Shown here in pieces: positions 44,441 through 59,570 of a stretch of 64,000 nt of DNA. Positions within the stretch are counted from its first letter, which is position 1; every line of letters starts with the position of its first letter. Below the pieces are notes generated by a model. That model did not search any database and had not been told where the DNA came from. It was given only the letters and a program-made list of their open reading frames with translations. The stretch comes from Eledone cirrhosa (lineage: Eukaryota). The DNA is taken from contig OZ024743.1 in NCBI GenBank assembly GCA_964016885.1, positions 171,244,001 through 171,308,000 on the forward strand. Reading direction: 5' to 3'. The translations under genes and the position numbers were made by a program.

Positions 44441-44698
44441 GAGATGAAATCGAAAATGCAACTGGAGTCTTATTTTTTTTTAAAATATATATATTTATTT
44501 AGTTCCTTTACCGGTTTCGCAGTTCTTCTGCTTTTCAAAAGGTGAGTTGAGATGGAGGGTCTGTGGTTTTTCTCACAGACCCTCCATCTCAACTCACCTT
44601 TTGAAAAGCAGAAGAACTGCGAAACCGGTAAAGGAACCAAATAAATATATATATTTAAAAAAAAAATAAGACTCCAGTTGCATTTTCGATTTCATCTC
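44441..44698. repeat. ~125-bp-arm palindrome carrying two mirror HHRs (44597-44634 +, 44505-44542 -)
   Basis: Centre CTGTG-GTTTTTCT-CACAG; CCTT-TTGAAAA-GCAG-AAGAA-CTGC-GAAA-CCG-GTA-AAGG. Confidence 0.85.
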
Positions 44699-44723
44699 TA
44701 TTTCTATATATATATATATATAT

Positions 44724-44903
44724 AATTGTTTCTACTTTAGGCACAAGGCCAGCAAATTACCCAGTACATTACTGGTACTTTATTTTATCGGCCCGGTAAG
44801 GATGAAAGGCAAAGTTAACCTCGGCGGGATTTGAACTCAGACTGTAAAGGGACGTAACTATGCTAGAAAGCATGGCGTCCAACCCTCTACCGATACTGCC
44901 AAT
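44724..44903 (-). mobile_element. tRNA-derived SINE
   Basis: Same family as 4816. Confidence 0.85.
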
Positions 44904-45042
44904 ATATATATAATGTCCTGAGTTTCTGAAGAATAGAGCAAGGAAAAAAAAAAGAAAAGAGCCAAGATCTCAACACAAATGCATGCTATACCCTATGCTG
45001 GATGCATTTGTGTTGAGATCTTATTCATATATATATATATCG

Positions 45043-45475
45043 TTTATCGTTTTCGGTACGCCCGGTCGACTAACTCACTCGATATACACATTAGGTTGCT
45101 CAGCCGTAAATATGCATACGGAAAGTATATACTTTCAAACTTTCAATCGACTGACAGGAAGGTATACGATGCTGATGACAGCTAATAAGCTAGAAACTAG
45201 TTCATCGTTCCTTTGTCAGTGTTGAACAAAAGGGAAACGATGGTTGCCGAACAGTGTACGGCTTAAATCGGGCTGTTTGTTTACAAACAAACCGAACATT
45301 AAAATAAATGTTCGGTAAACCCATACGTACATATATATATATATATATATGTGTGCATGTATGTATGTATATACATACTACTGTACGTCTGTATACATAT
45401 ATGTATGTACGTATATATACTTATATTTAAGTATCAGCCGTACTAAGAGTGAGAAATGAAATTTTATTTTTTCCA
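45043..45475 (+). mobile_element. Non-coding HHR element (family B), monomer
   Basis: Diverged homologue of 48298-48785 in a different permutation. Confidence 0.75.
45167..45207 (+). ncRNA. Canonical minimal type I hammerhead ribozyme
   Basis: CGATG-CTGATGA-C-AGCT-AATA-AGCT-A-GAAA-CTAG-TT-CATCG. Confidence 0.9.
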
Positions 45476-45727
45476 TATATATATATATATATATATATAT
45501 ATATATATATATATACATGTATATATATATATATATATATATATATATATATATATATATATATATATATATATATATATATATATATATATGTGTGTGT
45601 GTGTGAGTGAGTGTGTGTGTATATATATATATATATATATATATATATATATATATATATATATATATATATATATATATGTGTGTGTGTGTGTGTATGT
45701 ATGTATGGATATATATATATATATATA

Positions 45728-55369: not shown

Positions 55370-55493
55370 GGCTCTGATGATAATATTGACACACTTATGT
55401 ATTTATTCTTAATGGACCTATATCGATTTATATTCGATACCTCAACATCTATGTCCATTCTTACTGTGCCGTATTTGAAACAACTTGTCAGCC
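55370..55493 (+). ncRNA. Type I hammerhead ribozyme with ~95-nt extended stem II
   Basis: GGCT-CTGATGA...(inner AATGGAC/GTCCATT helix)...GAAA-CA-ACT-TG-TC-AGCC. Confidence 0.75.
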
Positions 55494-56399
55494 ATTCAAT
55501 ATATATATGTAATATATATATGTATTATATATATATATGTATTCATAAATCTTTGTTGTTCTCTCTAGCATTGTAAATTTGATATAAATATATATATATT
55601 GTCTATCAAAGTTATTTTGTCACACACCTGTGATATCATCAGTGGTACTATTATGTTTCCTCCCGTTGTATTATAATGTCTACGCTATTTTTATTTATTC
55701 ATTTATTTATTCTTGTCTCTATCTCTGTTTGTGCATGCTTTGCGTGTGTGTTTTCTGTTTGGTGTGTGTGTTCGTGTCTGAGAGTATGTGTGGTTGTATT
55801 CTATCTTTGTTGACTAGTGTGTGTTATTGTACCTGTGTATATTTATATATTTATATTTACCTTAGGTTAGTATTGTGTGTTTGTGTATGGTTGTTGTTGT
55901 TATTCCATTCATTTTCTCTGTTCAACTTTGGTTTTCTGAGTTCTATTTCAGTTGCTTCTCTGATTTATCTCCCTGTTGAGTCATTTCTATATTTAGATAT
56001 TATTTTAATTTCTATGCTGTCTATATTACCAACATGTCTCTGGCGTGTTCGTATGGTACCGGACCGTATTTCTGTTCTTTTAGTACCCCCCAGTGTTGAT
56101 CCATCTCTCTCTTATGTTTCGAGCTGTCTCACCTATGTATGTCGTTGTCATGTACCCTCTCTAAATCTCATGCTATAGACTATATTTCTAGTTTTACAAT
56201 TTATTTGAGGATTTATTCTACATATAACACATTCCTTATTCTTACAGTGGGTTTTCTTAAAGGGGTATGTTTTGCTGATCAGGGATTTTATGGTAGTTCT
56301 TGGTTTTCTACCTCATTAATCTTTATATCCTTTAGGTCCTTTCTAAATTGGTTAACTAACCCCCCCCCCCCCATGGGCTGCATCCACGAACATGACACT

Positions 56400-59350
56400 C
56401 TGGTATCTCTGGTTGTCGTACTATGAAGTGGCTTTCCCTATCTTATGTTTAGTCCTATCTATGCTATTCCATGATTTGCTCCTGTACAGTGGGCAAATCC
56501 CCTTCATGTCCATTTCTATGAGAGTCTTATATTTCTCCGTGGCTCCTTTGTACACTCGGATTCTGTCTTTTTGATTGTAGCCAGAGAACTGCATGCAATT
56601 GATCAAGTGTTGGATGTGTCTTTCCATTTCAGTTGGGACGCACATATACGACACATTCTTCATCACTCTTACCAAGTCTGCGATAAGAATATTAAACTGA
56701 GTTATAAATAGAATATATTGCTGAGTTTTTTAGTGTAAGGTATTTGGAGGCCATGGATTTAGCGTAATGTGAGTGGAAAATTTGGGTTTTCTCGTTTATA
56801 GTGTTTAACCAGAGTTCAAAGTCTAATACTGGTAGTCTATCGTTAGGGTATTTGGAAGGGAAGTCAATAGTTACAGTTATGCTCTGGTGCATGGAGTAAG
56901 CTATCTGCTGGATGCTCTCCATTGTGTTAGTTTCTAATTAGGGTTTATTGATACTCTTTTGTGGGGGTGTTTTTATTGTTATATTGATATTGTCTAGGTA
57001 ACGAGAGTATATGACGAGGGCTAGGAGATCCCTGAGTCTCCTCTCCACCATACCATAAATAGATTGCTAATATCGCCAGCTATGCTGACGCCAATGGCCG
57101 CTCCCTCATCCTGGGTGTAGATTTTCTCATTAAATTTAAACATGTGGCCCTTTAGGGTACTTTTAATACTAGCCCCTACTGAATGTGCGATCATTTTTCT
57201 CACCTGATCGTTGTTCTTGTGTGTCCGTATAGATTTGGTCCATCCATTCCTTCTTCCTATGGGAGTCTTTTTAGCCATTGAAGTTATGGTGGAGGTTCTA
57301 CCTCTTATAGGTCTACTGGGGCAGAAACTGCTAAAGTATTCATTGACGTATGTAAGTCTAAGTAGGAGGCCCAGTTCATCTGTGTCAACGTCGCAGAACT
57401 CTACTTCACTCTCACTGATTATTTCCACACATTTTTCCACAGCAAAATCAAAGTCAATGGATGGGTACAGAGATAGTACATCCATACTGCCTATTATGCA
57501 GTTAGTTAAGTTTATGTTGTTGTTTCATTCATTGACTCTACTGAGGAGGACCTCTCTGCTGTCACATGTATCTGGAGACATCTTAATTATGGGGCGTATA
57601 ATCATAGAGAAGAAGTAGGTGATCCTGTAGTTATTGGCAATATTGGCTCCGCATACAGGCCTTGTTGGTGGTCCTGTCATAGGGTCCTTAGTTGTTTTAT
57701 GATCTTTGCGGAGTCCATACAAGGGTGGTATGTCGTTGTTAGGCGCTTGGCAATTATTGGCTGTGCATCTACTTGGTCTTAGAATGTCGGTCCACATCAT
57801 GTCGGTCCTCATGTGTCTATGGTGTTGTTTCGCTCGTGTTGATGATGAGGGGTTGCATAGCCTTGATGTAGTTTGGCATGCTGTCTATTGCCATCCTACC
57901 GGATTTGTCCGTAGGTAGACACACTACCGCACCATCCCTTGTGCGCTGCATGAGGCTAAGAAGGCCTTCTACAGGTTTTCTTCCAAGTTGTTGAATCTCT
58001 GGTCTGTTTTCTCTCCTAGTATATTGGTCTACTACCTGTCTAAGTTTATTTATAGCTATGGTAAACTGTGTCTCTGCTTGGTCATCTATTTGTTGTGGTA
58101 TAAAAACCATTTTATTAAAGGATAATCGAGTGGGGTAAATTTTGTTCATCTTGTATGTTTTGTCAGCTGGGTTGAAGAACAGATTCTCTAAAGCGTTGTC
58201 ATTAAATCTATCGTTATAGTTGTGTGTACTATTATTATTGTTATTATAGTTGTTGTTGTTCCTACTGTTATCGTTGTTCTTGCTATTTCTATTGTGGTTG
58301 TTACATGTATTGTTGTTATGTCTATTGCTGCTATTATAGTTGTTGTTGTTGTTCTCTCTCTTGTTATCTTTGTTGTTACTGATATATCTATTGTGGTTGT
58401 TACATGTATTGTTGTTACGTTTATTGCCGTTATTGTTGTTGTTGTTGTTGTTCTCTCTATTGTTATCGTTGTTACTGTTATTTCTATTATTATGGTTGTT
58501 ACATGTATTGTTGTTACGTTTATTGCTGTTATTATATTTATTGTTGTTGTAGGGCGGTGGATTGGCAGTATCGGTAGAGGGTCGGACGCCATGCTTTCCA
58601 GCATAGTTACGTCCCTTTACGGTTTGAGTTCAAATCTCGTCGAGGTTAACTTTGCCTTTCATCCTTACGGGGTCGATAAAATAAAGTACCAGTAATGTAC
58701 TGGTTAAATGCTGGCCTTGTGCCAAAAGTAGAAATAATTATATTTATTGTTGTTGTTCTCTCTATTGTTATCGTTGTTCCTGTTATTTCTATTATTATTT
58801 CTACCTCTCCTGCTGTCCCTGTTGTTATTGTTATGACTATTATCATTATAGTCGTTATATCTATAGCCGAAGTTTTTATTGTTGTTACCACTTTCGTTGT
58901 TATTATTACCGTTCGTATTCTTGTTATTTTTGTTCGTATTCTAACGGACTTTAGTGAAGGACCTTTTAATTTCCGACAAGCATCGTACTGGGTTTACCTT
59001 GTTATATATAGTGAACTTTGGTGGTAGTTGTAGAATATGTTGTTCTTATTCGCTGGTTATAGTGTTATCATAGATGTGTAGTGTATGGTCTTTGGTAAAC
59101 ACTTTAGGTAATATGACATTTGCCATATGAAAATTGTCAATTTTGTCGGGATATTTTTGTAAGTTTTCTTGTTTCGTTTCCTTTTCTTTTTTGTCCTTCA
59201 GCCATCTGAATTTTTTATCAAAATGTTTTTTACATTCGTTTTGAGCATATTTTGTTTCATGTCGAAGTTTATTTATCTCGTTTGGTGTGGTGAGATTTTG
59301 AATTTTCTTAACATTAACGCGTTTCAGGTTGTAAAGTTGGTTCATTTTTT
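56400..59350 (-). mobile_element. Decayed long PLE-type RT element with Asn-rich N-terminal repeats
   Basis: PTDKSG, LYGLRKDHK..GPPTRPVCGA, DVLSLYPSI, GAAIG, SRYLDN, LPVLD; 99-bp tandem repeat at ~58230-58550. Confidence 0.75.
58552..58740 (+). mobile_element. tRNA-derived SINE with ~20-bp TSD
   Basis: ATTATATTTATTGTTGTTGT at 58531 and 58737. Confidence 0.9.
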
Positions 59351-59522
59351 TTATGTTAATCTTTTTATATTAATCGTTAACGTGCGTATTACAATTAAAA
59401 ATAATTAAAAAGAATAAAGAATTTACAATTTAAAATTAAGTGTCGAAGAGGTCTGTTCATCTTTCTTTCGCAACACTTGATTTAAAATTTTTCATTTTTA
59501 ATTCTTTTTAATTGTAATATTC

Positions 59523-59570
59523 AACATTTGATAAGATGGTTTACACTGATACATCGAAACCGGTTATATT
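59523..59570 (+). ncRNA. Minimal hammerhead ribozyme, U3-A8 variant
   Basis: AACAT-TTGATAA-GATG..CATC-GAAA-CCG-GTT-ATATT. Confidence 0.65.

Follow-up and report, generated by a model that had tools for sequence, protein, structure and literature searches.

Hammerhead ribozymes in which the canonical C3-G8 pair of the catalytic core is replaced by U3-A8 have been described before. According to the available part of Perreault 2011 (PMC3088659), this natural covariation of positions 3 and 8 is compensatory, and U3-A8 ribozymes are active in vitro. In Penelope-like elements of Schistosoma, about 1,300 matches to U3-A8 motifs are reported by Cervera & de la Peña 2014 (PMC4209133), whose supplement lists a U3-A8 motif of S. 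mansoni beside a similar C3-G8 motif of S. japonicum. Thus, the U3-A8 core itself is not new. Here, we describe such hammerheads in a stretch of 64,000 nt from Eledone cirrhosa (assembly GCA_964016885.1, contig OZ024743.1, positions 171,244,001 to 171,308,000, forward strand), referred to below as the window, and in the genome at large. A sequence-only reading of the window had singled out two motifs with the cores TTGAAAA (site 1, 44597-44634) and TTGATAA (site 2, 59523-59570), with stems and palindrome retained; both are present as described, with the qualification that stem I of site 2 consists of 2 bp plus a mismatch. Each motif is a type I minimal hammerhead located within a 3' repeat of Neptune-like Penelope-like retrotransposons. 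The related families that we sampled share U3-A8, and the motifs likely cut the RNA of their elements slowly, as dimers joined by ACCGGU, a reading to which we assign a probability of about 65%. The less ordinary part of the results is a related family with a substituted A13 (A13C), together with multiple origins of U3-A8, more than U3-A8 itself.

The frequency of the 3-8 pair was assessed by exact-pattern matches across the 3.0-Gb genome, which miss decayed copies. A pattern for the family of site 1 (family 1), in which positions 3, 7 and 8 were left free, matched 11,820 times, and the reversed pattern, used as a control, did not match at all. U3-A8 was present in 11,672 of these matches (98.7%). 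The 148 exceptions consist of 101 matches without U3, with A8 kept in all 100 that were listed, and 47 matches with U3 but without A8. The site-2-type pattern, which takes in families 2 (that of site 2) and 3 and also had no match in the reversed control, yielded 2,779 matches, 2,704 of them with U3-A8 (97.3%); among its 75 exceptions, 22 lack U3, none of these being C3-G8, and 53 have U3 without A8. Altogether, C3-G8 was not found among the listed exceptions to either pattern. U3-A8 is the norm of these families and not a product of decay. These fractions bear out the earlier proposal that C3U and G8A compensate each other, and the genome-wide covariation count did not reveal a C3-G8 consensus with equally common single mutants. 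Seven C3-A8 copies of family 1 are located at G000:C1:348863669-348949713, six of them spaced by about 9.6 kb, and probably represent a tandem duplication that inflates the count of single mutants.

U3-A8 also prevailed when the core was sought 9 to 30 nt upstream of GAAACCGGT: U3-A8 was found 23,526 times genome-wide (control 67), C3-G8 129 times (control 167). Most of the 100 listed C3-G8 matches belong to another family that carries GAAACCGGT in stem II, as a reading of locus L165 indicated, so that the true C3-G8/ACCGGT motifs number fewer than 129. A search with CUGANGA would indeed miss the motifs, as had been predicted. Canonical hammerheads are also plentiful in this genome, in other families (10,410 matches for one pattern with an ACGT palindrome). 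The family consensus cores found are either C3-G8 or U3-A8, never mixed.

At site 1, stem I is formed by CCTT (44597-44600) and AAGG (44631-44634), the core occupies 44601-44607, and stem II (GCAG/CTGC) lies within 44608-44620, followed by GAA, the palindrome ACCGGT (44624-44629) and A17 at 44630; the cut is predicted 3' of A44630, in a GUA triplet. At site 2, the core at 59528-59534 is followed by stem II (GATG/CATC), by GAAACCGGT at 59556-59564 and by U17. In families 1 to 3 the core follows the scheme N3 U G A N N8 A ... GAAA ... UH, positions 3 and 8 forming a Watson-Crick pair; stem II has G10.1-C11.1, and the palindromic stem III permits dimers, the ACCGGU self-duplex having a predicted energy of −8.3 kcal/mol. 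Stem I, expected to comprise 4-5 bp, has 4 bp at site 1; at site 2 and in its relatives it has 2 bp and a mismatch.

The carriers of the motifs are elements with reverse transcriptase (RT) and GIY-YIG domains, and the motifs reside in their terminal repeats. Full-length copies of family 3 (4.7-4.9 kb; loci L085 and L086) have the motif in both repeats, which flank an RT + GIY-YIG frame of 777 amino acids (aa). The family-1 motif is found about 1.0-1.4 kb downstream of a related open reading frame (ORF) with a GIY-YIG end (L158, L159), and the family-2 motif follows a GIY-YIG piece that shares 80% identity with family 3 across 140 aa (L161). Families 3 and 4 have a C-terminal GIY-YIG domain with both the CX2-5CxxC linker and the DKG motif, and family 1 has the linker. 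These two motifs, which the available part of the clade description gives for Neptune and Nematis (PMC8557442), are the basis of the provisional assignment, rather than a tree with named references, and the name is kept at "Neptune-like" because Nematis shares the linker. Two candidates for the carrier of site 2 were rejected: the ORFs of L160 and L163 are family-4 insertions (91-99% identity), and the minus-strand ORF at 56000-59400 is not the carrier, because it had no tblastn match with the family-3 protein and family 2 is linked to the Neptune-like piece in L161. The latter ORF is Penelope-like, of full length but decayed, and belongs to another clade; a short repeat interrupts it near 58580-58710.

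The number of origins was addressed with a tree of the region that spans thumb and endonuclease, computed with FastTree from 55 sequences over 330 columns (Shimodaira-Hasegawa-like support). It took in 45 of the 120 listed database relatives and was rooted with a distant element from L214. Families 1 to 5 form one clade (0.92), in which family 2 is sister to family 3 and family 4 to family 5 (1.0 each). U3-A8 and ACCGGT occur in all five; a single origin of U3-A8 would therefore suffice for sites 1 and 2. The sequence-only reading had called the two families independent. Families 1 and 2 are distinct, their proteins being about 51% identical across 137 aa, but since both belong to the same clade only one origin is counted. 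When the two window stubs were compared by BLAST, only short matches appeared, for example the shared CGAAACCGGT and A/T runs.

Separate origins do exist outside this clade. Family 6 (1,810 matches; A8 in 100 of 100 listed, U3 in 17 of 20 loci) has a different palindrome, and its ORF, with DKT and a CxCX5C linker in a short element, has the features of the Hydra clade. It is hardly alignable to family 3, and the core of a Hydra-type relative at 27314-27342 of the window is C3-G8. Family 7 (540 matches; A8 in 99 of 100 listed, U3 in all 15 loci) groups with a C3-G8 family (0.845), which makes a third origin possible. Its stem III, AGGUCU (L242, L250-L264), can self-pair only via tandem G·U (−0.8 kcal/mol), and its stem I starts from a basal U·U mismatch.

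In family 4, the A13 that is invariant in the canonical core is not retained. Its pattern has 11,308 matches in the genome, three of them in the window, and none in the control; GCAA replaces GAAA (A13C) in 98 of 100 listed matches, and U3-A8 was present in 20 of 20 loci, so that the substitution is not decay. A full-length member (L238) carries A13C in both repeats and has frames of 455 and 654 aa; another locus (L245) has a frame of 655 aa. The sampled copies differ from the majority sequence by about 1-2%, a value that is biased low by exact-match sampling. As the sister family 5 keeps GAAA, A13C likely arose on the stem of family 4. According to PMC4075628, which cites Nelson & Uhlenbeck, A13 mutations slow cleavage 10- to 100-fold. 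A13C likely slows self-cleavage in family 4, and this family may show, in nature, a Penelope lineage thriving with an impaired ribozyme. No hammerhead family with fixed A13C was found in a literature search that did not include Lünse 2017, the likeliest source. Taken together, we consider the odds about even for the wider proposal that U3-A8 arose at least twice (in Neptune-like and Hydra-like elements, perhaps three times), and that an autonomous U3-A8 lineage fixed A13C and expanded to more than 11,000 copies, matching in number its relative with an intact core, which would imply that cleavage is dispensable or tuned down in vivo.

For sites 1 and 2, we propose that one ancestral C3U+G8A change occurred at the base of the clade of families 1 to 5, that two motifs would pair via ACCGGU and form stem III, and that dimeric cleavage in tandem elements would be low and probably protein-assisted. 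A stem III built by the pairing of two motifs has been proposed for this motif class (PMC4209133, in its available part; PMC6765202). In the active fold, base 8 pairs with position 3, and the roles of general acid and general base fall to the 2'-OH of position 8 and to G12, respectively (PMC11300833). The geometry of the fold can therefore be preserved by a U-A pair. The double-hammerhead dimer of site 1 (−21.1 kcal/mol) lies 1.4 kcal/mol above the best dimer fold (−22.5 kcal/mol). The monomer folds of three motifs are no more stable than those of shuffled sequences (z from −0.93 to 0.33), as expected for motifs that depend on dimers, and are thus uninformative. Stem II differs between families on both sides with pairing retained (GCAG/CTGC, GATG/CATC, GCAT/ATGC), and this covariation points to selection on the fold.

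Several observations weigh against slow dimeric cleavage from one ancestral change. The double-hammerhead dimer of site 2 (−4.7 kcal/mol) is 16 kcal/mol above the best fold (−20.9 kcal/mol), and its stem I consists of 2 bp, a C·A mismatch and 2 bp. In families 2, 3, 5 and 7, as well as in roughly half of family 1, stem I is limited to 2-3 bp. The sister family 4, for which the corresponding dimer energies are −8.9 and −17.9 kcal/mol, has spread with A13C. In a mutational scan, the G3-C8 swap alone gave strong rescue, and the other double mutants of that region had low activity (Roberts 2023, PMC9901934), and the in vitro activity of the motif class is low in the available part of Cervera & de la Peña 2014 (PMC4209133). 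In addition, the tree is based on 330 columns with Shimodaira-Hasegawa-like support, and family 2 is represented by about 140 aa. Site 2 has largely inherited its weak stem I, given that in related copies, too, just 2 bp form beside the core; the hammerhead of the D. virilis Penelope has a comparable 2-bp helix (PMC4209133, in the same part).

That the motifs match by chance, or are canonical hammerheads that decayed independently, might be argued from the frequency of C-to-T and G-to-A changes and from the age of the site-2 copy; this explanation is refuted by the family counts, with their few exceptions and no listed C3-G8, and a scan of 200 local shuffles found no such motif. Separate C3U+G8A events at sites 1 and 2 would fit the low DNA similarity of the two families outside the motif, and families 6 and 7 indicate that the swap occurred more than once in this genome. 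However, families 1 to 5 fall together in one clade (0.92) and all have U3-A8 and ACCGGT, and no C3-G8 family was found inside this clade among the members whose motif was read, three database proteins being its further members; we therefore regard separate events at these two sites as improbable.

A more serious alternative, which we nevertheless consider rather unlikely, is that the hammerhead of this clade is vestigial as a catalyst and that its fold is kept for RNA dimerisation via the palindrome, for protein binding or for priming; U3-A8, the weak stem I and A13C would then reflect relaxed selection on the chemistry. The fixation of A13C in family 4, which has 11,308 matches and long open frames, and the very short stem I of several families fit this view, as do published observations in the available parts of two studies: insertion in vitro was unaffected by hammerhead mutants of an Anolis element (PMC11167929), and Naiad elements proliferate without canonical hammerheads (PMC8557442). 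Furthermore, the stubs retain both sides of the cut site, which suggests that their templates were uncut or rejoined. However, U4, G5, A6, A9, G12, A14, A15.1, U16.1 and H17 are kept across families that are 50-70% identical in protein, and positions 3 and 8, important for the active fold, change solely as a pair.

The site 1 region is a 137-bp inverted repeat whose arms (44429-44565 and 44574-44710) are 97% complementary and 98-99% identical to the family-1 3' end in L158. Head-to-head truncated copies are a known feature of Penelope-like elements, according to the available part of PMC8557442. As a single RNA, 44429-44710 is predicted to fold into one long hairpin (−215 kcal/mol), which would sequester the hammerhead of site 1 as well as its mirror copy. 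The window copies at both sites appear to be inert stubs.

The 5' ends of truncated copies are clustered: 23 of 42 sampled family-1 copies start 31-60 nt upstream of the core (L158 7060-7105; window 44574-44600), and 9 of 36 family-4 copies start 34-46 nt upstream, in a sample that includes inverted pairs and whose members are thus not independent. These clusters may reflect a transcription start that yields short, trans-mobilised stubs. Upstream of the hammerhead, the repeats of families 1 and 4, but not of family 3, contain TGGCGC(G/A)AA and CCAAT words, which we take to resemble the E2F and NF-Y sites of cell-cycle promoters. At L158 6990-7053, clustered A-to-G differences were seen in contigs of run X4 (kind unrecorded); they could stem from A-to-I editing of fold-back transcripts or from copy variation. 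Contigs of two other organisms covered the family-1 stretch at low depth, too thin for use. Among RNA data, no carrier of the motifs was listed, which speaks neither for nor against expression.

A structure-aware scan of the window found three motifs of this type, and none in each of the 200 local shuffles. No hammerhead was among the 150 listed of 218 Rfam matches in the window, and the microRNA matches, with scores under the gathering threshold, are repeat or hairpin artefacts. The main features are listed in Table 1. Eight C3-G8 hammerhead-like motifs of other families, some decayed, are present at 13677-13703, 27314-27342, 29664-29692, 31699-31726, 42253-42310, 45172-45201, 48497-48526 and 51901-51945. 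The window also contains a long frame with endonuclease and RT of the LINE (long interspersed element) type at 17556-20250 (minus strand) and 15770-16040, partially duplicated and embedded in TA arrays, and a tRNA-like match at 32154-32223 (minus strand; 38.2 bits, over the Rfam gathering score), possibly the head of a short interspersed element.

Table 1. Features of the window discussed in the text (window positions unless a locus is named).
Feature	Position	Strand	Basis or remark
Site 1 hammerhead, type I minimal, U3-A8 core, family 1	44597..44634	+	Motif anatomy; 11,820 genome family matches
Mirror copy of site-1 hammerhead, in inverted arm	44505..44542	-	
Two 5'-truncated 3' ends of family-1 Neptune-like element, head-to-head	44353..44710		
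Site 2 hammerhead, minimal, U3-A8 core, family 2	59523..59570	+	GUU triplet
Old 3'-end stub of family 2	59473..59755	+	About 80% identical to other copies
Short inverted arm beside family-2 stub	59387-59467		
Family-4 hammerhead, U3-A8 + A13C (GCAA)	44158..44187	+	
Family-4 hammerhead, U3-A8 + A13C	40450..40479	-	
Family-4 hammerhead, U3-A8 + A13C	3240..3268	+	About 950 nt 3' of ORF
Frameshifted RT + GIY-YIG ORF, family-4 Neptune-like element	28..2288	+	tblastn with family-3 protein; 94% identity to L238
Canonical C3-G8 hammerhead directly after Hydra-type ORF	27314..27342	-	Contrast case
Second copy of this C3-G8 hammerhead	29664-29692	+	
TGGCGC(G/A)AA / CCAAT words	L158 6760-7010; window 3050-3130 and 43848-44093		

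The U3-A8 findings add a host and a scale to what was known: judging by the pattern counts, searches for CUGANGA overlook tens of thousands of hammerheads in this genome. Sister families that differ in having an intact or an A13C core, but are similar in copy number and include full-length members, offer a direct test of whether cleavage matters for the spread of Penelope-like elements, a role that, in the available literature, has so far been probed in vitro for one element.

The following comparisons refer to the available parts of the respective publications. The closest system is Cercyon of Schistosoma mansoni (PMC4209133), which shares the type I minimal motif in terminal repeats, U3-A8, the short stem I and the palindromic stem III, as well as the prevalence of solitary truncated copies and opposite-strand pairs 100-700 bp apart. 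In contrast, the host differs, the 23,526 matches before GAAACCGGT compare with about 1,300, families 1 to 4 do not have the additional base in front of stem II, the elements that carry the motifs are Neptune-like and Hydra-like, and no A13C family was seen in that account. The covariation at positions 3 and 8 is the same as in Perreault 2011 (PMC3088659), but those examples were not tied to Penelope-like elements, and A13 was invariant in the filter used. With the endonuclease-containing Neptune and Hydra clades (Craig et al. 2021, PMC8557442), the elements share the C-terminal GIY-YIG domain, the linker and DKG/DKT motifs, inverted 5'-truncated copies and insertion in TA repeats, whereas the hammerheads described there are canonical. 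Finally, the PAc Poseidon element of Anolis (PMC11167929) also carries its hammerhead within the repeat, either immediately before the ORF or at its start, but the core is C3-G8, and in tests the hammerhead proved protein-assisted and was not needed for insertion in vitro.

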